Virus record (IMG/VR): IMGVR_UViG_3300037486_000582 | Coordinates: 32,001 to 96,000 of that record | Reading direction: 5' to 3' (one strand) | DNA from: a virus | DNA length: 64,000 bases | In this document: in pieces, positions 26,240 through 50,437 of the stretch | Layout of the letters: every line of letters starts with the position of its first letter | Numbering within the stretch: position 1 is the first letter of the stretch | Made by a program: the position numbers and the translations under genes | The notes under the pieces: model-generated | The model's database searches: none | Told to the model about the DNA's origin: nothing | The model's input: only the letters and a program-made list of their open reading frames with translations

Positions 26240-27511
26240 CTACGCCCGCTCGGCGTTCCAGTAGTAGATCAAGTCGCCGTTCTCGTCCTTGCCCTCCGGC
26301 CGGATGACGCCTTCGAAGTAGCGGTATGGGGAGCGCCCGCGGTTCGGATTGTTCCAGAGCCAGTGCAGGAGGTCGTACATGGACTGGTGCCAGATCTTCG
26401 ACGCGCCTTCCACCGTGCCCCAGTTGAGGACGCGGGCGCGGATGTTCTTGAGCAGCCTCAAGTCCTTCTCGAAGTCGCTCCAACGGACTGAGCCGTTTCT
26501 GCGAGCCAGGACGAGCGCCTCGGTGAACTGGCCTCGGCTGTAGTTCCAGGTCGGGGGCAACCCGCAGCAGGAGCCGTTCGCGCAGCGCTCCTTGAAGTGG
26601 GCGTCCGAGACGTAGAAGCGCAAGCCGACCTCCTTGCACAGCTCCTCCATCCGGTCGATGACGGGCCGCTTCACGTTCCGGTTGAGCCGCATGTAACCGC
26701 GCATCGCCGAGTACCGCTTGTAGAAGGCGTACAGGTCGAAGCCGGCGAGCTTCGACATCTCGTGGAAGTGGAGCCGCCCGCCCGGGCTGCGCTCCTCCAT
26801 GCAGAAGTACTCGGTGCTGAGCGCCGTCGCCCCGGCACTGGCCGCGTCACGGATGAGTTGCTCGTAGGTCGCGTCGCTGATCCCAGGGATGAAGGGGCGT
26901 AGCCGAAGGGTCACGCCACCCTTGTTCAGCTTGGCGTACTTCTCCATCGCCCGGAGGCGCTCCATTGGGCTCGGCACACCCTTCTCGACCTTCCGGGCGA
27001 GTTCCTGGTCGCCCGTGACGATCGAGATCTTCATGTTCCAGTTGTCCTGACCTCGGAAGATGTCCGTGTACCGCTCGTCGTCGAGCCACCAGGTCCCCTT
27101 CGTGCTGAAGCAGATGGGGTAGTCGAGGTCGCGCCAGAACCGGAGCAGCTCCAACCCAACGCCGTACCGCTTCTCGAACGGGCAGAACGGGTCGGACAAC
27201 CCGCCCCACTGAAGGACCTTCCGCGCCCGGATGAAGTCGGTGAAGCGATGGTCCGTGGTCGGGTCGAGCCACAGCCGCATGACCCGGTCGACGTTGACGG
27301 GGACGGCCTCGTGGCTCCAATACTTGTCCTTGCACTTCCCGACCCCGCGGGAGAACTGCGAGAAGCAGTACAGGCAGAAGTACCCGCACACGCTGTACTG
27401 GTCGAAGGTGACCGGCATCGAGCAGTCGGCGACCTCCGCGGAGCAGCGCGGCGAATCGTAGAACCGCTGAAGCCGTGCCTTCGGCCGGCCGTCACTCGTT
27501 TCCGCTGCCAT
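26240..27511 (-). CDS. Radical SAM protein (spore photoproduct lyase-like clade)
   Basis: DQYSVCGYFCLYCFS (CxxxCxxC), GGLSDPF, STKG, VEKGVPSPMERL, LRLRPFIPG. Confidence 0.85.
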   Translation of the reverse strand: MAAETSDGRPKARLQRFYDSPRCSAEVADCSMPVTFDQYSVCGYFCLYCFSQFSRGVGKCKDKYWSHEAVPVNVDRVMRLWLDPTTDHRFTDFIRARKVLQWGGLSDPFCPFEKRYGVGLELLRFWRDLDYPICFSTKGTWWLDDERYTDIFRGQDNWNMKISIVTGDQELARKVEKGVPSPMERLRAMEKYAKLNKGGVTLRLRPFIPGISDATYEQLIRDAASAGATALSTEYFCMEERSPGGRLHFHEMSKLAGFDLYAFYKRYSAMRGYMRLNRNVKRPVIDRMEELCKEVGLRFYVSDAHFKERCANGSCCGLPPTWNYSRGQFTEALVLARRNGSVRWSDFEKDLRLLKNIRARVLNWGTVEGASKIWHQSMYDLLHWLWNNPNRGRSPYRYFEGVIRPEGKDENGDLIYYWNAERA

Positions 27512-28253
27512 GCTGCGTCCCAGCGCCACGCCCGGCGACCTCGTCGGCCATCCGCTGAAGCTCCTGCACAGGGTAGATGATGCGGTTCGTGCGGAAGGGC
27601 ACGCCGAAGCACCTCTCCAGCCACGTCCGCTCCGCCTCGCCCTTGAAGACGATGATGAGCCGTTCGCTCTGGAGTGAGTCGTCCTCGGCATCGAGCGGCG
27701 GAAGCGGGTCCGGGCGGAGCCCGGAGTCCTGCGTCCGAGACAGCCGACCATAGTCGATGCCTCCGGGCGCGTTGGGCTGGTCGGGCACCTGGAAGGTGAC
27801 CGGGGCGAGCAACTCGTCGATGTTCAGGTCCGGGATGCGGGTGCTCTCGATGATCGCCTGGACCTCGTCCTCGCTCATCCCCATCCCGCTGAAGAACGTG
27901 GTCTCGGGGTTCCAGTCGGCATAGCGGCTGTTGAGCTGGAGCAGCTTCGCGGCTGCGTCTTGACGGTCCTTCGCCCGGACCTCGACGTAGACGATGGGCG
28001 GGATGGTCCAGCCTTCCTGCTCCAGCGACCGCAGCGCGGCACACGTCTGGTGTCCGTCGAGGATCAGCGGCGAGCCCTCCTCGTCGCGCCACACGAACTT
28101 CGGCACGAACTGGCCGTAGCTCGTGAGACTGGACTTCAGCTTGGCGAGCGCCTCCTCGTCCAGCGGCTTCTTCAGGTCGCCCTGGAAGTCGCGGAGTTCC
28201 GTGTACGGAATGGTCGGTAGGCTGTGTGGGTTGTCGATCTGCAGCGTAGGCAT
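27492..28253 (-). CDS. ParB/Srx-like N-terminal domain protein
   Basis: LAKLKSSLTSYGQFVPKFVW..ILDGHQT..LQLNSRY. Confidence 0.75.
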   Translation of the reverse strand: MPTLQIDNPHSLPTIPYTELRDFQGDLKKPLDEEALAKLKSSLTSYGQFVPKFVWRDEEGSPLILDGHQTCAALRSLEQEGWTIPPIVYVEVRAKDRQDAAAKLLQLNSRYADWNPETTFFSGMGMSEDEVQAIIESTRIPDLNIDELLAPVTFQVPDQPNAPGGIDYGRLSRTQDSGLRPDPLPPLDAEDDSLQSERLIIVFKGEAERTWLERCFGVPFRTNRIIYPVQELQRMADEVAGRGAGTQHGSGNE

Positions 28254-35278: not shown

Positions 35279-35968
35279 TCATTGCGCCGGCGCGTCCTGT
35301 GTCCTGTCGTACAGGTCACGGAGCAACCGCGCGTCAGCGTCCCGGAACCGCCCGGGCGCGAGCCCGCCCTGGAACGCCATGTCCGGGGCGAGCGGATACA
35401 TCACCGACCCGCTGTCGTCGGGGTCGTGGGCAAGCCCAAGTACATGCCCGAGCTCGTGGACCAGAACCCGGTGTGCCGTCCCGTCGTCGGGGACGTTCCG
35501 CATCCGGACAGTGGCCCTGGCCACGAAGCCGCTTCCGACCTCGCGGGTGTGGAAGCAGCCGGCGTCGGCGTCCGCCGCCTCCGCAGGAACACCGAAGACC
35601 AGGGCAACGCGCGGTTCGGCGCTGACCGGACAGAAGGCCAGGGCGTCGAAGCCGAGCTGCATGTTGACCTCGCGGACCGCATACTCGGCACGACGCATGT
35701 CCGCCGACGTCAGCTCCGCGCTCTCGTTGCGGACCCCAAGGCACAGCGGGAAGGCGCTCCTGCCCCAACGGACCTCTTCCGGCGACGCACAGACGCCGAC
35801 GGCGCCCGAGCCTTCAACCTGGTCGGCGTACTGCGCGACCGTTCCGCTCCAGCACACACGAAGCAGGAGCGGCTCGGTGTGCCGCGGAACGAACCACACG
35901 AGCAGCACGACGGCGGTCACGGCGATGGCCGCGAAGGCGGCGACGGATACGATCCACTTCCAGCGCAT
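35279..35968 (-). CDS. Membrane-anchored matrixin-like (metzincin) metalloprotease
   Basis: N-terminal TM helix; HELGHVLGLAH and Met-turn SVMYP. Confidence 0.85.
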   Translation of the reverse strand: MRWKWIVSVAAFAAIAVTAVVLLVWFVPRHTEPLLLRVCWSGTVAQYADQVEGSGAVGVCASPEEVRWGRSAFPLCLGVRNESAELTSADMRRAEYAVREVNMQLGFDALAFCPVSAEPRVALVFGVPAEAADADAGCFHTREVGSGFVARATVRMRNVPDDGTAHRVLVHELGHVLGLAHDPDDSGSVMYPLAPDMAFQGGLAPGRFRDADARLLRDLYDRTQDAPAQ

Positions 35969-35986
35969 GGCGTACCTCCGAGGGTT

Positions 35987-37084
35987 CTAGTCTACGCCAC
36001 CGCCGGGCGGGTCGCGCCAGTAGGCGGGCGGGTGGCAGAGTCGCGGCCAGGCTGCTCCGACCGGCCCGCCGGCCGTTGCGCGCACCGCGACTTCTGCGTC
36101 GTCCGGGTAAGGCTTCGGCATCTTCGGAAGGAGGAAGGCGCGCGTGCCGGCGTCCTTGTCGCACCAACCACACGGCGCGAACCGACGATCCTTCGACGCG
36201 AGCAGGCGCCGAGCAGCCATGAACCGCCAGCCCCACCAGATATCCGTCAGCGTTTCGTCCCGATCAGCCACGCCGCAGACGTAATCGCCGCGCCAGTCGA
36301 TGCAGCAGAGCCGCACCTCGCCGTTCCAGGTGACGGCGAGCTCGCGGAAGGGGTTCGAGCAGTTCTTCCGGAGCGGAGCTTCTGGAACGGGGCGAGCCGG
36401 GCTCGCCCCGGCGTGGTTGAGCACCTTGCGGCTGGCCCGCTCCCGGTCGCGAAGTCCCAGGTCGTCCATGAGCACGACGAGCCGGCGGGCGAAGCGCCTG
36501 TGGTTCCCCCACGGCGACCACCCGCTGGGGGCGAGGTCAGCGTAGAAGTCGCGTACGGTGATGCCGACGCCAAGCGTTGCTGCTTCGGCGCGGAGGTCGT
36601 CCCTGTCCTCACGGTAGGTGTCGATGATGACGTAGTCGAGTCCGGCGTCGAACAGCCCGACGATCTTCTCTCGCATCCGGCCCCGGAGAAGCTGGCCGTT
36701 CGTGGTCATCTGGAGCTGCGCCTTCGGGAGCAGCGCCCTGAAGGTCGCCACCACCTCGACCGCCTGTCGGTTGGCAAGTGGTTCACCGTGCATCGCGAAC
36801 TCGTACCGCGCCCACGGGGCAAGGGCGGCTGCCTGTTCAGCCACGAGCAGCGCCGTGTCGAGCGTCATCGGCTTGAAGCCGCCAGGCTTCGTGCGGATTG
36901 CGTTCAGTCCGCAGAAGGAACAGAGCCGGGTACACCCTTCGGTCAGCTCGATCTGGACGGACCAGGGACGCTGGACCAGAGCAGCCGCCGGGTCAGCAGC
37001 GATGGCGTCTGCAGGCGCGTGTGGCGGCGGCGGCTGCCGCCACTTGTCGCGAACGTACCTCCGCTTCACCCGGGGCTCGGTCAT
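35987..37084 (-). CDS. Radical SAM protein with SPASM/twitch domain
   Basis: [19 protein letters not shown]; [21 protein letters not shown]. Confidence 0.85.
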
Positions 37085-37518
37085 TGGTCTTCCAATTCCA
37101 GCGGGTCGGTCGGCCGGTCGGCATCCGCCTCCATCTCGCCGGCCACCGAACAGAACGCTTCGACGTGGTCAGCGCGATCGAGCATCTGTCCTGCCAGGGA
37201 CCGAATCTGCTTGGCGCACTCACGGAGTGCTGTGCGGAGCCAGGCATTTGCCTCGTGTTCGGCGAGCCAGGCCTCGTAGGAGACGTCCAAGCACCCACAC
37301 GAGAGGAGCTGGCCTCCACACCGCGGGCACCGCTCCATGTCGCAGCCAGGATGGTGCCGACCGCCGGGGCGCACCCCGCAGTCATGACAGCAGTGACGCC
37401 CGGCCGGGCGGTAGGGCACCGTCGGAAGGGACTCCCCGTCCGGGAACACGACGGACACGTTCTTGACGCAGGTGTCCACCTTGCCCATCTCTCCAGAGCA
37501 CGCCAAGCAGGCTCCCAT
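37081..37518 (-). CDS. Cys/His-rich metal-binding hypothetical protein
   Basis: [28 protein letters not shown]. Confidence 0.65.
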
Positions 37519-37551
37519 GTTTCGTTACTCCCGCCCCGGTCATTGAGCCGG

Positions 37552-38037
37552 TCAGCGGCCGGCACGAGCGAGACGCGCACGCTCCCGGGCAAGGCGCTCG
37601 CCGTGGAATCGGGTGCGAGCAGCGACGTGGGCCTGCGCGTCGGCCACGGCGGTCGGGCCACTGAACGCGCGTGGCGCGGGTATGGTAGACAGCCCGCCTG
37701 GGCGAGAGTACGTCCCGTCCTGGTTACGGAATGCTGGCACTCCTTCCGTGACCGTGACCTCGTCGGTGTTCGACCGCCGCGTCTGGACCATCGCCATGTA
37801 GGGTGAGCGCACGCGCTCGTTCCCCACGAACACGGCACCGCCGTTATTGTAGAAGTCCTCGGCGCGCGTCCCGGTCGGTGGCGCTGCCGAAACCCGCTCG
37901 ATCACGTCCTCGGCGATCATGCGTCCGGTCAGCGGAGTCACCTCTGTCGGGAGCCCGCCGGCCGCTTCGCCACCGCCACCGGCCGCTGCTCCGCCGGCTG
38001 CCCCGCCACCGCCGCCACCGCCTCCACGTCCGCCCAT
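37552..38037 (-). CDS. MGGRG-leader protein 5
   Basis: MGGRGGGGGGGGAAGGAAAGGGG leader; SD GGAGG; unique body. Confidence 0.75.
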   Translation of the reverse strand: MGGRGGGGGGGGAAGGAAAGGGGEAAGGLPTEVTPLTGRMIAEDVIERVSAAPPTGTRAEDFYNNGGAVFVGNERVRSPYMAMVQTRRSNTDEVTVTEGVPAFRNQDGTYSRPGGLSTIPAPRAFSGPTAVADAQAHVAARTRFHGERLARERARLARAGR

Positions 38038-38040
38038 GAC

Positions 38041-38544
38041 CTACCTCCGTCCACCTGGCCGTGTGCCAGTAGTCGGCAACGATGGCCGACGCTGCCGCCG
38101 CTCCTCGGAGAGCCGCCGAGCGGACTCAGCCGCAGACCGCGTTGCCTCCCGTTGAGCAGCCTCCAGGGTCGCGTGCTGGCTCCGCTGTGTCGTCGCTGCC
38201 GTCCGGTTCGGCGCCCCAAATTCCCTGGCGCCTTGTCCCCAGCGCGAGGACGTCGCGACATCGAAGACGGGCTCGCCGCGGATGTTCTGCCCGCGGTCGA
38301 TTGTCACCTGGCGGACGACGATGTCGTTGGTCTGCCCGACGCTGATGACGTTGCCTGCGGCTGCGACGTCGTTGCGGTTCAAGTTGTCCGGGTACCGCCC
38401 GGCCGGGAGCCCGCCCGAGACGACCGTTTCCGTTGCCGCCGTTGCCGCCGTCTCCGTCGCGGCACCGCCGCCGGCTGCCCCGCCACCACCCGCGGCACCA
38501 CCACCGCCGCCGCCTCCACCACCACCACCACCACGTCCTCCCAT
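38041..38544 (-). CDS. MGGRG-leader protein 4
   Basis: Same leader; SD AGGAGG; unique body. Confidence 0.75.
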   Translation of the reverse strand: MGGRGGGGGGGGGGGGAAGGGGAAGGGAATETAATAATETVVSGGLPAGRYPDNLNRNDVAAAGNVISVGQTNDIVVRQVTIDRGQNIRGEPVFDVATSSRWGQGAREFGAPNRTAATTQRSQHATLEAAQREATRSAAESARRLSEERRQRRPSLPTTGTRPGGRR

Positions 38545-38553
38545 CTTGACCTC

Positions 38554-39063
38554 CTACCGCGCGACTGTTCTGCTCGTGTCGGGCAGGTAGACCCGCGCCA
38601 GTTGCGTTTCACCTCGACGCTGTCGATTTGGCCGCGGACGGGTGACCGGATCGACTGTCGCTCCGGACATGCCCTGTCGGGTCAGCATCTCTCCGATGGC
38701 CTGTTGCTCTCGGTCGGTGAGCGGACGCGTCCTGCTCCCTCGGCCGACCGAATTGAGCTCGATCCGCCCGGTGTTCACGTCGCGGTTCACCTGGAGCCCT
38801 TGGTCGCGCAGCCCGGGGACGACGCTGATGGCGTCGACCAGAGCCCGCTCGGCTCGGCGCTGGCGCTGTTGCGGCGTCTCCGCATTCGCAGCCGCGACAT
38901 TCCGCTGCACGTCCGCGAGCCGTGGAGCCCCGCCGGGGATGAGCCCGGAGGCCTCGACCACCGTCGCCGTCTCGGCCGCGGCTGCTCCGCCGCCACCGCC
39001 GGCCGCGGCACCGCCAGCTCCACCACCGCCGCGACCGCCGCCTCCTCCGCCTCGACCGCCCAT
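38554..39063 (-). CDS. MGGRG-leader protein 3
   Basis: Same leader; SD AGGAGG; unique body. Confidence 0.75.
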   Translation of the reverse strand: MGGRGGGGGGRGGGGAGGAAAGGGGGAAAAETATVVEASGLIPGGAPRLADVQRNVAAANAETPQQRQRRAERALVDAISVVPGLRDQGLQVNRDVNTGRIELNSVGRGSRTRPLTDREQQAIGEMLTRQGMSGATVDPVTRPRPNRQRRGETQLARVYLPDTSRTVAR

Positions 39064-39084
39064 GACTTACCTCCTGCTCGCCCG

Positions 39085-39486
39085 CTACGGGGTCCGCTCA
39101 CCGGGGCGCAACCCGGCCTGCCTGATCCGCTCCTCGCTCGGTCTGACGCCGGACGGGAGCTGGCGCAGCTCGTTCACCGTGAGCCCCGACGGGAGCGTCC
39201 CTCGGCGGTTCATCGCGTCGGTCGCGTTCATCCCGACGCCCTGCCACGTAGCCGAACGCCAGTCGCCCCAGACACCCCGCGTGCTGATGCCCTCACCGAG
39301 CGCGCGCAGCTCCGGGTCCGAGAGCGTCTGCAGCCGGGCTGGCGAGAAGTCCCCAGCCGGGTCCGTTGACGCCGCTGCCTCGGCGAGCACCGCGGCTGCT
39401 CCGCCGCCGCCACCGCCGCCTCCTGCAGCAGCCCCACCGCCGCCTCCGCCTCCCCGGCCACCGCCGCCACCGCCGCGTCCGCCCAT
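39085..39486 (-). CDS. MGGRG-leader protein 2
   Basis: Same leader; SD AGGAGG; unique body. Confidence 0.75.
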   Translation of the reverse strand: MGGRGGGGGGRGGGGGGGAAAGGGGGGGGAAAVLAEAAASTDPAGDFSPARLQTLSDPELRALGEGISTRGVWGDWRSATWQGVGMNATDAMNRRGTLPSGLTVNELRQLPSGVRPSEERIRQAGLRPGERTP

Positions 39487-39495
39487 CGTCGCCTC

Positions 39496-39846
39496 CTAGT
39501 AGCTCCGCAGCGCGTCGCGGAGCTGCGGGTCCAAGTCACGGTTGTTGTGCCGAACTCCGTACATGAAGTTCCGGGCGTGGGCGGCCAACTCGGGCGGCGG
39601 GTTCGCGTCGAGGTACGTCCTGGTCGCACGGATCAGGTCGCGCCTGGCTTCGCCGTGGTCGCCCTTGTACCACCCGTTGAACGGCGTCATCCGGTCCATC
39701 CGGTCCATCGCGGTGATGGACTGCTGCAAGGATCGCCCGGCCGACGCGACGGCGGGCGGTACTGCAGCGGCTCCACCGCCGCCACCCGCGGCAGCCCCGC
39801 CACCGCCACCGCCACCGCCACCGCCTCCGCCACCACGTCCGCCCAT
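39496..39846 (-). CDS. MGGRG-leader protein 1
   Basis: Same leader; SD AGGAGG; starts 3 nt after DUF4417 stop. Confidence 0.75.
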   Translation of the reverse strand: MGGRGGGGGGGGGGGGGAAAGGGGGAAAVPPAVASAGRSLQQSITAMDRMDRMTPFNGWYKGDHGEARRDLIRATRTYLDANPPPELAAHARNFMYGVRHNNRDLDPQLRDALRSY

Positions 39847-39848
39847 GT

Positions 39849-40622
39849 TCAGCCTCCTGTCCCCGTTATTGCGTCGACCGGCTCCGCGTCTGCCTCGTCA
39901 TCGAACAGGCCGTCCAAGAGGCTCAACTGCCGCGTGTCCACGGGACCACGTTCCAGCCGCGAACGCATCTCGAGTATACCCTTGGGCGAGAAGCGAGCGA
40001 ATGACGAAAGGTCTGCCACGCCGAGGTCATCCCAGAGCTCCCCGTACACGAGGACCATGGATGGCTGAATCGTGTCGACCATCGCCCGGTACCCCTCGCA
40101 GAACCGACGTCGCACATCCTCCCCGACCCTGATACCTACCGTCGAAACGCAGACCGTCGAACGTCGCGCGATCCCGGCAAAGCAGAAGTCGAACGTACGC
40201 CAGTCGCCCCAGTTGACCGTGGGCACCACGACCGCCCCGCGAGCAGCCCAATAGGCGCCGAGCCACCGCGAGCGGTAGGTGTTCCAGAGCTGAAGCGCGG
40301 GCGGCCACTCGACGTACATGCTGAAGTCCGGCGTCAGCACGCCCTGCGCGCCAAGGACGTAGCGGTCGTACCTCCCGGGATTGTTCCAGACCGACTCGAA
40401 TCGGTAGTCGTCGAAGAAGAAGTGCCAACAGCCGCCAGCCACTTCGTCGTCGTCGAGCTTGTTCCGGTTCACCCACGGAAGCAGCACGTCCGGCACCCAA
40501 TCGACCGGGCCGGCGACATCTGGGAGGCCGAACCTGTTCGCGCTCCGATACAAGGACGTCGCGTGGAGCGGGTCCCAGTTGCCGGGGAGGCACTTCCAGT
40601 CCTTGACGTTCGGAATGCCCAT
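39849..40622 (-). CDS. DUF4417 family protein (start 40622 or 40649)
   Basis: HFFFDDYRFESVWNNP, VLTPDFSMY, QLWNTYRSRWLGAYW, VVPTVNW, FCFAGI, VSTVG. Confidence 0.85.
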   Translation of the reverse strand: MGIPNVKDWKCLPGNWDPLHATSLYRSANRFGLPDVAGPVDWVPDVLLPWVNRNKLDDDEVAGGCWHFFFDDYRFESVWNNPGRYDRYVLGAQGVLTPDFSMYVEWPPALQLWNTYRSRWLGAYWAARGAVVVPTVNWGDWRTFDFCFAGIARRSTVCVSTVGIRVGEDVRRRFCEGYRAMVDTIQPSMVLVYGELWDDLGVADLSSFARFSPKGILEMRSRLERGPVDTRQLSLLDGLFDDEADAEPVDAITGTGG

Positions 40623-41008
40623 GGCCTTCGTTTCTACCACGCCGGTCATTGAGCGTCTGCTCAATGACGTGGCCGTGACGTTGCTACCGCTGCTGGACGA
40701 CAAGCTCCCGGTGCTCCGCCGGCCGCATGAGCGCCTGGCCTCGGCGGACTTCATCGCCCTGTTCAGCGATGAAGATGCCGCTGCCATCCGGCTCGGAGAA
40801 CGTGGGCGCATTCGCGTTCACGGCGTCGGGCACACATCCTGTCGGATCACGGTGATGCTGCGCGGACAGCGCCGTATCGCGCTCCGCGCCGAGGTCGTGC
40901 GCGTTGCGCTCGTTGTCGGACTGGTCGAGATCGCCACGTCCTTCGGTTGGGACGTGGCGTACTCCGGTGGAATCGAGTCGGTGACGCGGATAAACGGGCT
41001 CGGGATGA

Positions 41009-42178
41009 TCAAGCACCGTCCGGCGGTGGCCCTTGGGGATCTTGAGGTACGGAACCCCGGCGCTCCAGCACCGCGGAGACGAAGGCCCACGGCGGGCAGT
41101 TGACGGCCTCGCTCCAGCCCACCGCCCGGGCAAGCCTGTCCCACTCGCGGTGCTCGTTGACCAGGGATGCCTCCTCGGTCCAGTCGTGGCCCCAGCCGAC
41201 CGTCCCGTCCATCGCATGAGACGGCCCGTCGACCCACAGGGCGCTTGCCGCAGCCAGCTCGGCCGGCCGGTCGACAAGCGTCACGTCCCAGTACGGGTCG
41301 CACCAGGCATCGCACCAGCGCGTTACGTCCTCGTCCAGCGTGGGCTCGACGCGCACGCGGACGGGCGGGTCCAGATGGAACTCGCGGAAGTCGTCGCCGA
41401 CGTATCCATAGACGGTGCGCGCAACCAGGATCTTCCCGACGTGGGCAGCGAACTCCGCGCGACAGAGCGCCTCGGCGCGCAGCCGCCCCGCCGCCTCCGG
41501 ACCGGGCGGACTGACGCGCTCCGCCGCAACGGGCTCCCCGAGCGGAGCAGCGCCGGCGACAGCCGCCTTGATGGCGATGGTGGCCTCGTCCGGTGTGTTC
41601 CAGCCGTCGGGGACAGCCGCCACGATTGCGTCGATCCAGCGACGGCGCGACCGTGCGAAGGCGGCGACCCGCTCGCGCAGCTCCAGAATGGTCGCGTTGG
41701 CGTCGGTCAGTGCATCTGGAAGTTCGGGGTGCTCGACGCGCGGTAGGCGCCCCATGATGCTCTGCGAGAGCCCGGACAACTCATCAGCGACCTGGTAGCA
41801 GGCCAGCGCGCGTTCCTCCGCCAACATGTCCACGACACGCGGAGCGCCTTCCTTGCGGAGCCGCTTCGCCTCAGCCTCGTGTCGGTCGCCGGCTGCGAGC
41901 ACGAGATCGACGACGCCTGGCGGCGGCCCGGCGAGCGCCGGGTTGGCGACGTCGGACTGGTCGGTTTCGCCCAGGTCGAGCTCGGCCTGGCGTTCGGCTT
42001 CCAAGTCCTCGCTGTTGTGCAGCGCCCCCAGGTCCGCACGCTCCCGCAGCAGCAGCACGGCTTCGTCGGCAAGCCCGACACCGAGCGCCGCTGCTCGTGG
42101 GGGCTCGGCCATCGACGAGTACCTGTTGAAGCTGTCTCCGAAGACGGCTGCCCAGACCTGACGTTCCAGCAAGTTCAT
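41009..42178 (-). CDS. Hypothetical protein
   Basis: MNLLERQVW.., SD GGAGG, ATGA overlap. Confidence 0.55.
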   Translation of the reverse strand: MNLLERQVWAAVFGDSFNRYSSMAEPPRAAALGVGLADEAVLLLRERADLGALHNSEDLEAERQAELDLGETDQSDVANPALAGPPPGVVDLVLAAGDRHEAEAKRLRKEGAPRVVDMLAEERALACYQVADELSGLSQSIMGRLPRVEHPELPDALTDANATILELRERVAAFARSRRRWIDAIVAAVPDGWNTPDEATIAIKAAVAGAAPLGEPVAAERVSPPGPEAAGRLRAEALCRAEFAAHVGKILVARTVYGYVGDDFREFHLDPPVRVRVEPTLDEDVTRWCDAWCDPYWDVTLVDRPAELAAASALWVDGPSHAMDGTVGWGHDWTEEASLVNEHREWDRLARAVGWSEAVNCPPWAFVSAVLERRGSVPQDPQGPPPDGA

Positions 42179-42951: not shown

Positions 42952-44226
42952 GCAACCTCCGCCGCCCCTCCAGCCAACGCCCGATGGCGCCGTACAGCTC
43001 GCGGACGTGGTCTTCGTGGAGCACGAGGCACGCTGCTCCCTCCGGCAGCACGACCTCGAACATCAGCCCGTCCGCGGCGTCCGGCCGGACGATGAGCCGC
43101 GACTCGTAGTGGAGGCCGGACCCGACCCCTTCCTTGGAGGTCAGCACGGCCGGCCCCGCTCCGCGTACAGCGACATGAGCAGCGCGATGCCCGAATCGCG
43201 GGACACCGTCATCCGGGCAGTCCACGGTGACAACCCCTGGGCCGGTCGAACCTCCCAGTGGTGCGGCCCCTCCAACAACCACCCGAGCCGTGTCGCCAGC
43301 GAACTGCCTGGAGCGACCCGCCTGGTCACCTCGTACTCGCCGCGAACGCGCTGACGGACGATGACCCTGGCGTCCTTCGCTGGGCAGCCGCCTTCCCAGT
43401 GGCCGAGCGCGTCCACGAAGGCGACCTTCTCCGCCGCGTAGTCCATCAGCGCCCCGTCTCGTGCCAGTAGGCGCAGCAGTTCTTCAGCTCGTCGACGGCG
43501 TCCATCGTGGTACGAGACGGCCGCAGCACGAGCGTCCGTCCCCAGGCGGACAGGAGCCACGTCGAGAGCGGGCGCGCGACCTCGATGCCCCAGCAGGACG
43601 GCAGCCAGTACCAGACGCGGTTTCGGCGCACCGAGAGGCGCGGCAGCGCCCGCGTCACCTCCCGACAGAACCGAACGACCCCTATCCGCCCCATGTAGCG
43701 TTCCTGCGTGGGCATCAGGCCACCCCCGTCGGGTGAGCAGCCCGTCCCCGCGCCTGCTGCGCCAGGAGCCGCATGGACTTCGCCTGCTCGCGGAGCGCCC
43801 GCGCGTTGCTCTCCAGGCGGTCAGCCTCGGCCTCGACGCCCGCTGCCTGGCGTTCCCAGGCTTCCGCGTCGCAGATCTCGTACCGCTGTCGCGCGTCGGC
43901 CATCACCGATCCGTTCATCGCGTCCTCCGTTCTGGTCATTGAGCGCCTGACGGGACCAGGCCTCCTGCAGTCGCGCTGTCCAAATTGGCTGGAATGGCAG
44001 CCGCGGTCAACGGCTGCTCGCACCGTCAGGCCAAGCCGGCGGTGGCGCGACCGGCCACGATCTTGATGACCAGACGCTCCAGCGCCTCCTTCAGCGACGC
44101 GTGCTGGCTCTCGAAATTGGCGTTCTTGCTGTAGGCGCGAACGGTCCACAGGCCGATCTTCCTGTGGGCGAACATCTCCGTGATCTCCAGCTCCCCGAAC
44201 GTCTCGTCCAAGCCATCCAAGTGCAT
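42944..44226 (-). other. Cluster of small hypothetical ORFs (42944..43147, 43141..43446, 43733..43918, 44026..44226)
   Basis: Closely packed minus-strand ORFs, several with SDs; no recognisable motifs. Confidence 0.45.
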
Positions 44227-50125: not shown

Positions 50126-50437
50126 GGCCGGGTCATTGAGCCGGCCCGCGGCGCAGCACGAAGCAAAGCCGTCGAAAGGGTGCCGGGTCAAAGCCAGAGT
50201 CGGTGCGGAGCCCGTTGTGCGGCCAAGGACGGTGGCTCAAGTCCGCGCAGAAGGGCGGCTGCTCGGGGCGGTGGCGCATTGGCGGCAGCGCGCCGACCCC
50301 CACCCGAGCAGCGCCGTCGGGCCGGAGCCGCGCCGTCTTCGCAGAATCGGCGCGGACTGCGTGCGGGGCGCAAGGGGTGAGTTCAGGGTGCGGATGGAGG
50401 AGCACGTTAGCACCCACCGCCCCGGCCACGGCCGGCG

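Follow-up and report, generated by a model that had tools for sequence, protein, structure and literature searches.

The virus record IMGVR_UViG_3300037486_000582 of IMG/VR (108,577 bp, 68.6% GC, rated complete by CheckV) carries nearly all of its genes on the minus strand. We analysed a window of 64,000 nucleotides of this record (record bases 32001-96000), in which a gene for a DUF4417 protein is followed by five consecutive genes, g1 to g5, whose products all start with MGGRGGGGGG, hereafter the tag. In window coordinates, the six genes are as follows.

39849-40622, minus strand: DUF4417 gene, 257 amino acids (Pfam PF14386, E = 5.5e-49; phrog_940)
39496-39846, minus strand: g1, 116 amino acids, a 28-residue Gly/Ala leader and an 88-residue body
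39085-39486, minus strand: g2, 133 amino acids, a 32-residue Gly/Ala/Arg leader and a 101-residue orphan body
38554-39063, minus strand: g3, 169 amino acids, a 30-residue leader and a 139-residue orphan body
38041-38544, minus strand: g4, 167 amino acids, a 29-residue leader and a 138-residue body
37552-38037, minus strand: g5, 161 amino acids, a 23-residue leader and a 138-residue orphan body

The six genes are closely packed. The ATG of g1 begins 3 positions past the last base of the DUF4417 stop codon (TGA-AC-ATG), as the initial annotation of this stretch had stated, and the ribosome site of g1 is formed by the final two DUF4417 codons (GGA GGC). The sequence GGAGG lies 5-6 nt ahead of the ATG in each of g1 to g5. 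These five genes all lie in one reading frame, which has a chance of about 1 in 81, and they are separated by one stop codon (two between g2 and g3) and an in-frame spacer of 3-6 codons. Genes in the tagged arrays of other phages are not in one frame. Five tagged genes stand in the array here; the maximum was three among 80 DUF4417 loci of IMG/VR, in which two or three in tandem were common. In the public gene calls, g3 (P0121, 135 aa) starts at an internal GTG and loses its MGGRG leader, and DUF4417 (P0001, 212 aa) is N-terminally truncated.

Translation and a six-frame scan bore out the five consecutive MGGRGGGGGG genes, each with its own GGAGG, that the initial annotation had noticed, and the scan found no other ATG-MGGRG start in the whole 108,577-bp genome. 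The Gly/Ala linker described past the shared start was present in all five products: only Gly, Ala and Arg occur in this run, and the whole leader is 23-32 residues long. It had also been claimed that the peptide is conserved over differing codons. Within g1 to g5, Arg is indeed encoded by CGT, CGC or CGA and Gly by GGC, GGA or GGT; among 57 representatives of the body families described below, the Arg4 codon is AGA in 24 and CGN in 33, and Gly is encoded by every one of its common codons. In these representatives, Gly, Ser or Ala is favoured at tag positions 6-9 (MGGRG[GSAT][SGA][SG]G). G2, Arg4 and G5 are universal in the collected tags by construction, since the search pattern required them.

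Removal of Met1 ahead of Gly is established enzymology, and we infer that the tagged proteins lose Met1, exposing GGRG as the mature N-terminus. In two Bacillota-type loci (L090 and L101), the sequence xxNLQFF-GGRGASSG replaces the MGGRGASSG start within the same body family. This leader fits the Prp cleavage motif of L27, MLxx(D/N)LQ(F/L)F' (PMC9405229), and cleavage there would likewise expose GGRG. Because the Prp-type variant would also lead to this end, the free N-terminus seems to matter, and the conserved element appears to be the peptide and its free N-terminal end and not the DNA.

The initial annotation suggested that MGGRG-starting open reading frames (ORFs) often follow DUF4417, and this pairing turned out to hold in both directions. 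A single-sequence search of IMG/VR with the DUF4417 locus found no relative, whereas a search with profile A1, an alignment of 38 DUF4417 proteins, drew more than 500 loci, of which 80 were kept. In 71 of the 80 loci, the zone from -320 to +1200 nt relative to the DUF4417 stop contained the start of an M-G-[G/K]-R-G ORF, and tag ORFs stood beside DUF4417 in 11 of 14 DUF4417 clusters (60% identity), with loci of 27-66% GC. The tag ORF was always on the DUF4417 strand, often with its start 0-4 nt from that stop. A stricter ORF filter gave tag-ORF densities of 0.59 per kb in this zone and 0.0045 per kb in the rest of these loci, a difference of about 130-fold. The reverse scan of IMG/VR, for GGAGG, a spacer of 4-10 nt and ATG-GGN-GGN-CGN-GG, returned 116 loci and 74 plausible gene starts; for 50 of these 74 starts, DUF4417 was found on the same strand within the fetched flank. 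A control pattern, MGGNGAS, returned 63 loci, almost all of them chance matches. Only two contained DUF4417, and both have genuine tagged ORFs (MGGNGASS...) adjoining it. The pairing of tag and DUF4417 is thus a general, two-way genomic linkage. No paper describing it was found in the literature, papers containing 'MGGRG' being irrelevant, and the module is apparently widespread and undescribed.

The linkage extends to cellular genomes, in which the tag was present in 44 of 76 DUF4417 loci; species genomes contain more than 450 DUF4417 loci. The tag-bearing loci belong to Chloroflexota, Actinomycetota, Bacillota, Gammaproteobacteria, Nitrospirota, Patescibacteria and one Methanobacteriaceae archaeon. 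In loci from Chloroflexota metagenome-assembled genomes (L222, L225, L227, L239, L254, L285 and others), a protein of 500-1089 aa starting with MGGRG or MGSRG follows DUF4417; six of the long MGGRG proteins (788-1089 aa) matched no Pfam family. Among cultured phages, mycobacteriophage L5 and hundreds of cluster-A phages have DUF4417 as their gene 1, and in mycobacteriophages of about 76 kb an MGGRGGGGGG gene starts 9 nt past DUF4417. One 76-kb record of the mycobacteriophage type (G001, IMGVR_UViG_2595698624_000001) has MGGRG-start ORFs directly past DUF4417, 5 kb further on and at the extreme left end, with an HNH gene and a probable tRNA region just upstream of DUF4417. Its sites of interest are given on one line.

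91, 4307, 65741 and 70753 in G001: MGGRG-start ORFs and the DUF4417 region

One lineage (L314 and L361) carries the tag variant MGGNGASS in two genes per locus. Its DUF4417 differs at 7 of 37 highly (at least 90%) conserved positions (F68L, F69Y, D71E, L96F, P107N, W120L and T135I). We considered covariation of a DUF4417 pocket residue with the tag Arg and set it aside, as one Asn-tag lineage with seven changed positions is too little for evidence.

Beyond their leaders, the five products diverge. The bodies are 88-139 aa long with 12-16% Arg and a pI of 6.4-11.5, and pairwise BLASTP among them gave nothing significant (best E 0.015 over 25 aa). The description of the bodies as unrelated, Arg-rich and of about this size therefore stands, and by this comparison they are not paralogs of one family. 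The body of g1 belongs to a small family of 97-170 aa with the motif TPFxxWYKGxH, which is untagged elsewhere. Its model is a confident four-helix bundle (predicted local distance difference test, pLDDT, 88.5), for which structure searches returned generic four-helix bundles and no informative match. A reading of g1 as a KH-repeat protein was rejected, since the matches were summed weak stretches and Pfam did not confirm them on g1. The g4 body is weakly similar only to the first tagged gene of a close relative, L219 (about 49% over 72 residues), and has no homologue at E<=0.001. A search with g3 returned only g3 itself, and the ESM Atlas gave no usable match for g5 or g2. The DUF4417 protein of L219 is 74% identical to the one here; its array opens with a different body, the order differs, and the cargo is far more diverged.

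The 170 tagged proteins of the DUF4417 loci fall into 52 BLAST body families. Pfam searches on 57 representatives identified ADPrib_exo_Tox in four and ART-PolyVal, Gln_amidase (a papain-fold toxin), DUF6883 and DUF3626 in one each, the rest giving nothing; an Env-gp36 match in one representative (E 3.2e-05) is weak and was taken as spurious. Gene 3 of phage Georgie2, which adjoins DUF4417, is annotated as an ADP-ribosyltransferase toxin. In one 53,399-bp locus, the gene after DUF4417 starts with MGKRGG. A further tagged family (L120, L129, L133, L162 and L192) has the form MGGRGG-(K/S-rich)-QMQAQMQ..., about 185 aa and coiled-coil-like, with no DUF4417 within the fetched locus. Because the bodies are dissimilar and form 52 families, the relatives of g1 are untagged and the L219 cargo has diverged, the tag appears to be grafted onto unrelated bodies, and the cargo appears to evolve much faster than DUF4417. 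Such fast divergence of cargo over a conserved DUF4417 is a pattern typical of conflict genes. The initial annotation had called the bodies swappable effectors. That they are swappable agrees with these data and toxins do occur among the cargo of other phages, but the five bodies here contain no recognisable domain.

The DUF4417 protein matches PF14386 with 166.6 bits (cut-off 28.9) over profile positions 1-168 of 183, and the genome search agrees. The papers listed as naming DUF4417 assign it no function. In alignment A1, the invariant residues are H67, D72-Y-R-F-E76, P98-D-F-S101, Y116, R117, R119 and W120. They lie at or just past predicted strand ends, a placement as in the active or binding site of a barrel. 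The AlphaFold2 model is an alpha/beta barrel (pLDDT 85), of low confidence from about residue 221 and without secondary structure past 225. Its best structural matches are archaeosine tRNA-guanine transglycosylase (TGT; 1iq8, Z 10.1) and DpdA (7ui4, Z 10.0, root-mean-square deviation 3.2, 160 residues aligned), followed by QTRT2 (6fv5, Z 10.0) and bacterial TGT (3unt, Z 8.6). The top 50 re-aligned PDB chains were all TGT or DpdA (Z 8.6-10.0), with other triosephosphate isomerase (TIM) barrels at 7.9 or below; Foldseek of the model against the PDB gave only weak generic TIM-barrel rows. DUF4417 is thus predicted to have a TGT/DpdA-like TIM-barrel topology, and the transglycosylase-like TIM barrel guessed in the initial annotation was borne out by the model and the fold searches. 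Membership in the TGT superfamily stops at the fold. The invariant D72 (with D71) and D99 lie at strand ends in the first half of DUF4417; the three invariant Asp of TGT/DpdA, which act as general acid/base, base reader and nucleophile, are D95, D130 and D256 in DpdA.

In phages, DUF4417 is frequently fused to ParB-CTPase folds (bioRxiv 10.1101/2025.10.10.680097), and one locus (L099) has such a ParB-DUF4417 fusion with an MGGRG gene directly upstream. DpdA exchanges guanine in DNA together with a ParB-like ATPase, DpdB (PMC10164549). The ParB-DUF4417 fusions mirror the DpdB/DpdA pair.

The DUF4417 cluster is bounded by a repeated motif. This motif, its surroundings and the neighbouring genes are located in the window as follows.

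37538-37548, 40644-40654, 43934-43944 and 50131-50141, coding strand: copies of GCTCAATGACC found in the motif count of the genome
40644-40668, minus strand: perfect 10-bp inverted repeat, GTCATTGAGC-N4-GCTCAATGAC, which contains GCTCAATGACC and lies about 20 nt upstream of the DUF4417 start
37538-37548, minus strand: second GCTCAATGACC copy, directly past the g5 stop and 19 nt ahead of the ATG of a gene for a Cys-rich protein
35279-37518, minus strand: three genes, for a Cys-rich protein, a radical SAM/SPASM protein and an M10-like protein, behind their own GCTCAATGACC copy
27492-28253, minus strand: gene for a ParB-like protein (PHROG E about 2e-6, no Pfam match), 12 kb from DUF4417
40621-41103, plus strand: ORF starting within 2 nt of the DUF4417 start codon

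The 11-mer GCTCAATGACC has four copies in the 108.6-kb genome, for about 0.2 expected of a 10-mer, and three of the four sit about 15-22 nt ahead of a start codon. It is probably a phage-specific promoter or operator common to several units, and the inverted repeat at 40644-40668 is a probable promoter or operator of the DUF4417 operon. The copy at 37538-37548 separates the DUF4417 unit from the one that follows. Neither a sigma-70 promoter nor an intrinsic terminator was found inside the cluster from DUF4417 to g5. Because GCTCAATGACC heads both DUF4417 and the next gene past g5, DUF4417 and g1 to g5 look like one transcription unit. The initial annotation had singled out a shorter motif, CAATRAC, but this 7-mer occurs 19 times on the minus strand and the true signal is the 11-mer; the copy placed before g1 is a mere 7-mer match within the DUF4417 coding sequence.

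Downstream of g5 come, in order, the Cys-rich gene (145 aa), the radical SAM/SPASM gene (365 aa), the gene for an M10/matrixin-like metalloprotease and an HNH endonuclease gene; the ParB-like gene (recognised at the PHROG level), the large terminase and the portal lie farther downstream. The first three could be a peptide-modification set in a phage. None had homologues in the other DUF4417 loci fetched to that point, and because of this and their own GCTCAATGACC copy we excluded them from the DUF4417 system, both as a part of it and as a precursor of a ribosomally synthesized and post-translationally modified peptide with its radical SAM maturase. The ParB-like protein could be the unfused counterpart of the ParB-DUF4417 fusions. 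On the other side of the cluster, the product of the plus-strand ORF is 52% identical over 103 aa to its counterpart at the same place in L219. Because of this conserved position, the ORF is probably a real, divergently transcribed gene.

The explanation that we hold to be probable, if only modestly so, is that DUF4417 reads the mature N-terminal GGRG as the address tag of polymorphic cargo, which is probably delivered in virions, and that reader and cargo make up one operon of a phage module. The six genes would probably be co-transcribed from the GCTCAATGACC-marked site, each with a strong ribosome site of its own. The host methionine aminopeptidase would take off Met1, for which Gly is the ideal second residue, exposing Gly-Gly-Arg-Gly, and a flexible Gly/Ala tether of roughly 20-25 residues would let this free end reach its partner. 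The partner would be DUF4417, a predicted barrel with the fold of guanine-exchanging transglycosylases and with invariant acidic and aromatic residues at strand ends, which would read the tag and may process it chemically. Reading of the tag would allow unrelated proteins to be handled alike: the five of this phage and, in other phages, toxins such as ADP-ribosyltransferases. Most likely, this would serve to load them into the particle or onto the DNA and so to deliver them to the next host. Direct contact between tag and DUF4417 is what we infer; delivery of the cargo in virions and covalent chemistry by DUF4417 are speculative.

Several observations weigh against this explanation. At the sequence level, a Pfam scan at E<=0.1 gave DUF4417 alone with no match to PF01702, which is also absent from the genome; profile A1 gave 0 matches at E<=10 against PDB sequences; and reading of the 257-aa sequence showed no TGT-type zinc motif or Cys cluster, no explicit motif scan having been run. 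No conserved acid is present at about residues 208-213 of the model, where the alignments end at the nucleophile D256/D280, a position judged only from the ends of the aligned ranges and not from residue pairs. The large terminase does not adjoin the module, which is about 14 kb upstream of it, terminase and portal being 14-20 kb off, and the complete phage genome has no QueC-like gene (PF06508). None of g1 to g5 matched Pfam or PHROGs, and no recognisable effector domain was found in any of them. Finally, 9 of the 80 viral and 32 of the 76 cellular DUF4417 loci have no tag nearby, and some tagged families occur in loci without DUF4417.

The distance to the head genes bears on a different explanation, in which head proteins read the tag as a signal for targeting to capsid or portal, like the T4 internal-protein signal, and DUF4417 is an unrelated neighbour, e.g. 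a nuclease or a DNA-modifying enzyme of the packaging region. T4 loads its internal proteins by a shared N-terminal peptide on polymorphic bodies. PHROGs and many SEA-PHAGES records label DUF4417 'nuclease', and the pair of cluster-A mycobacteriophages lies at the left end of the genome, ahead of HNH, minor tail protein and endolysin genes. We nevertheless regard a signal for head proteins as unlikely, because the tag is linked specifically to DUF4417, whose gene shares its strand and usually lies only a few bases away, because this linkage spans very different phage types as well as cellular loci, and because the gene adjacent to the tagged array here is DUF4417, with terminase and portal far away.

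If DUF4417 were instead an active enzyme of the transglycosylase type, it could conjugate the cargo covalently. It would take out a nucleic-acid base, most likely one of phage DNA near packaging, and join C1' to the tag through the guanidinium of Arg4, a mimic of the guanine edge, or through the alpha-amine of Gly, so that the cargo is tethered to the genome. Both linkages have precedents that count in favour of such conjugation: the N-glycosidic linkage of Arg is established chemistry in arginine ADP-ribosylation, and attack of an N-terminal residue on C1' is established for T4 endonuclease V, Fpg and HMCES/YedK. The TGT/DpdA fold, the recurrent ParB fusion, which parallels DpdB/DpdA on DNA, and the presence of G2, R4 and G5 in every collected tag (by construction of the search pattern) point the same way. 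What makes covalent conjugation improbable is that, by inference from range ends, there is no conserved Asp at the nucleophile position of TGT/DpdA, that no zinc site was seen and no sequence-level relation to TGT was found, and that QTRT2, the non-catalytic TGT subunit, matches the model as well as the enzymes do. We give correspondingly little credence to the proposal, put in its fullest form, that DUF4417 is a protein-to-nucleic-acid transglycosylase, which swaps a base of phage DNA for the tag so that the five cargo proteins are injected as covalent passengers.

The occurrence of ADP-ribosyltransferase and deamidase toxins among the bodies would also suit a toxin-handling cassette. Here DUF4417, as chaperone, immunity factor or activator, would keep tagged toxins inert in the cell that makes them, or the cassette would act in the infected cell, in superinfection exclusion or host takeover, without delivery in virions. 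A single immunity protein for more than 50 unrelated bodies, however, must act through the tag alone, which leads again to a reading of the tag; a passive binder would not be expected to have the enzyme-like invariant residues of DUF4417; and the five bodies here have no toxin domain. We think such a cassette quite unlikely.

Type IV of the cyclic oligonucleotide-based antiphage signalling system (CBASS) offers a further model. In this system, the partner, a cGAS/DncV-like nucleotidyltransferase (CD-NTase), starts with M(G/S)G(G/S)GG, Met is removed and the QueC-like Cap9 links Gly2 to 7-amido-7-deazaguanine (Wassarman et al., bioRxiv 10.1101/2025.04.06.647259). The TGT-like Cap10 then binds the Met-cleaved, modified N-terminus of its partner in its active site (same source). 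In the phages, a QueC-like enzyme of the host or from elsewhere would correspondingly cap the free Gly with a 7-deazaguanine-type base, and DUF4417 would bind the capped end. The fold class, the Met-Gly-Gly start with its Gly-rich extension and the adjacent-gene arrangement are the same in both systems. The phage, however, has neither QueC (PF06508) nor a canonical TGT (PF01702) in its complete genome, none was noticed in the conserved neighbourhood of the other loci, and Arg4 of all collected tags has no counterpart in the CBASS motif. Because the phage has no QueC-like gene, the Cap10/NDG chemistry is not simply transferable, and a reader of a capped end is very unlikely.

An explanation in which the leader acts as nucleic acid and the peptide has no role, its GGN repeats being a recombination hot spot for cassette exchange or a translation element of the mRNA, would fit the GGN-rich leader DNA, the five genes in one frame with short in-frame spacers and the different body order in L219, yet it is scarcely credible, since many different codons encode the same five residues across genomes of 27 to 69% GC (Arg as AGA in 24 and CGN in 33, Gly as GGA, GGC or GGT), a poly-Gly run is missing from low-GC tags, the Prp-leader variant retains GGRG away from the start codon, and arrays elsewhere are not in one frame.

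Reading of the tag by DUF4417, if it occurs, would give phages of Actinomycetota, Bacillota, Chloroflexota and other groups a common modular means of marking proteins, whatever their fold, for the same fate. This fate would probably be delivery to the next host, and with toxins among the cargo it would represent a new route for the delivery of phage effectors and anti-defence proteins. It would also offer an approach to dozens of orphan phage genes that evolve fast. Taken together with Cap10, it would mean repeated recruitment of the guanine-exchange fold for gripping glycine N-termini, on the phage side of the conflict as well as on the host side. Should DUF4417 prove to be a protein-to-nucleic-acid transglycosylase, it would be the phage counterpart of Cap10-type systems and perhaps supply their missing 'target molecule' logic. 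The question can be tested directly in well-studied mycobacteriophages such as L5, and a five-residue tag with a dedicated reader could serve as a tool. The tag may have gone unnoticed because gene callers mis-start the genes of this module, as both truncated calls (g3 and DUF4417) illustrate here.

Five known systems share features with the DUF4417 module. The first is the processing of N-termini by Prp, as in pro-L27 and in the capsid and scaffold of phage 80alpha (PMC9405229, PMC5744158), since the NLQFF leader of L090 and L101 fits a Prp site at which the host protease would expose GGRG. Such a leader is confined to a Bacillota subset, whereas plain Met removal would suffice in this phage.

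MuF polymorphic toxins (reportedly treated by Jamet et al. in 2017) and polyvalent proteins (reportedly by Iyer et al. in 2017) are said to carry swappable ADP-ribosyltransferase and deamidase domains, to be encoded in packaging or head regions of phages and to be, presumably, injected with the DNA. Their effectors are fused to a MuF or portal-associated domain, in contrast to the free-standing proteins here, which have only a tag of 5-9 residues; Pfam scans of g1 to g5 and of the 57 representatives found no MuF or head domain. The internal proteins of T4 (IPI-III and Alt) have a short common N-terminal capsid targeting sequence on fast-evolving bodies, some of them ADP-ribosyltransferases, and are delivered along with the DNA. 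The tagged cargo likewise combines a common N-terminal peptide with polymorphic bodies. The T4 signal, however, is cut by the prohead protease and has no dedicated enzyme gene, whereas the tag would itself form the very N-terminus of the mature protein and is linked to DUF4417.

DpdA and DpdB (PMC10164549; PDB 7UI4) resemble the module in fold and in partner, as 7UI4 is a tied-best fold match and DUF4417 is often fused to ParB, while DpdA needs the ParB-like ATPase DpdB. They differ in that DUF4417 has no PF01702 match and the three invariant Asp of TGT/DpdA are not placeable on it (from alignment ranges only), in that no preQ0 pathway genes are present here, and in that the conserved partner is a protein tag and not a base.

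The closest parallel in arrangement is type IV CBASS, in which a TGT-fold gene likewise adjoins a partner with a Met-Gly-Gly start and a Gly-rich extension. There, Met1 is removed and the free glycine end threads into the barrel pocket, and we suppose a phage counterpart of these steps. Cap10's own structure was absent among the structural matches listed for DUF4417. The two systems differ in side and in chemistry: type IV CBASS is a host defence and this is a phage module, and the QueC-like Cap9 of the former has no PF06508 match in this phage genome. They differ also in the partner, which is a CD-NTase there and many unrelated small proteins or toxins here (the five bodies of this phage belonging to no Pfam family), and in the tag, since Arg4 is present in all collected tags and the published motif has no Arg. 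DUF4417, moreover, measures about 200 aa and has no sequence-level relation to TGT. We treat the DUF4417 module as one that would work like the Cap10-type pair, in which a barrel grips a glycine N-terminus, and not as a member of type IV CBASS.

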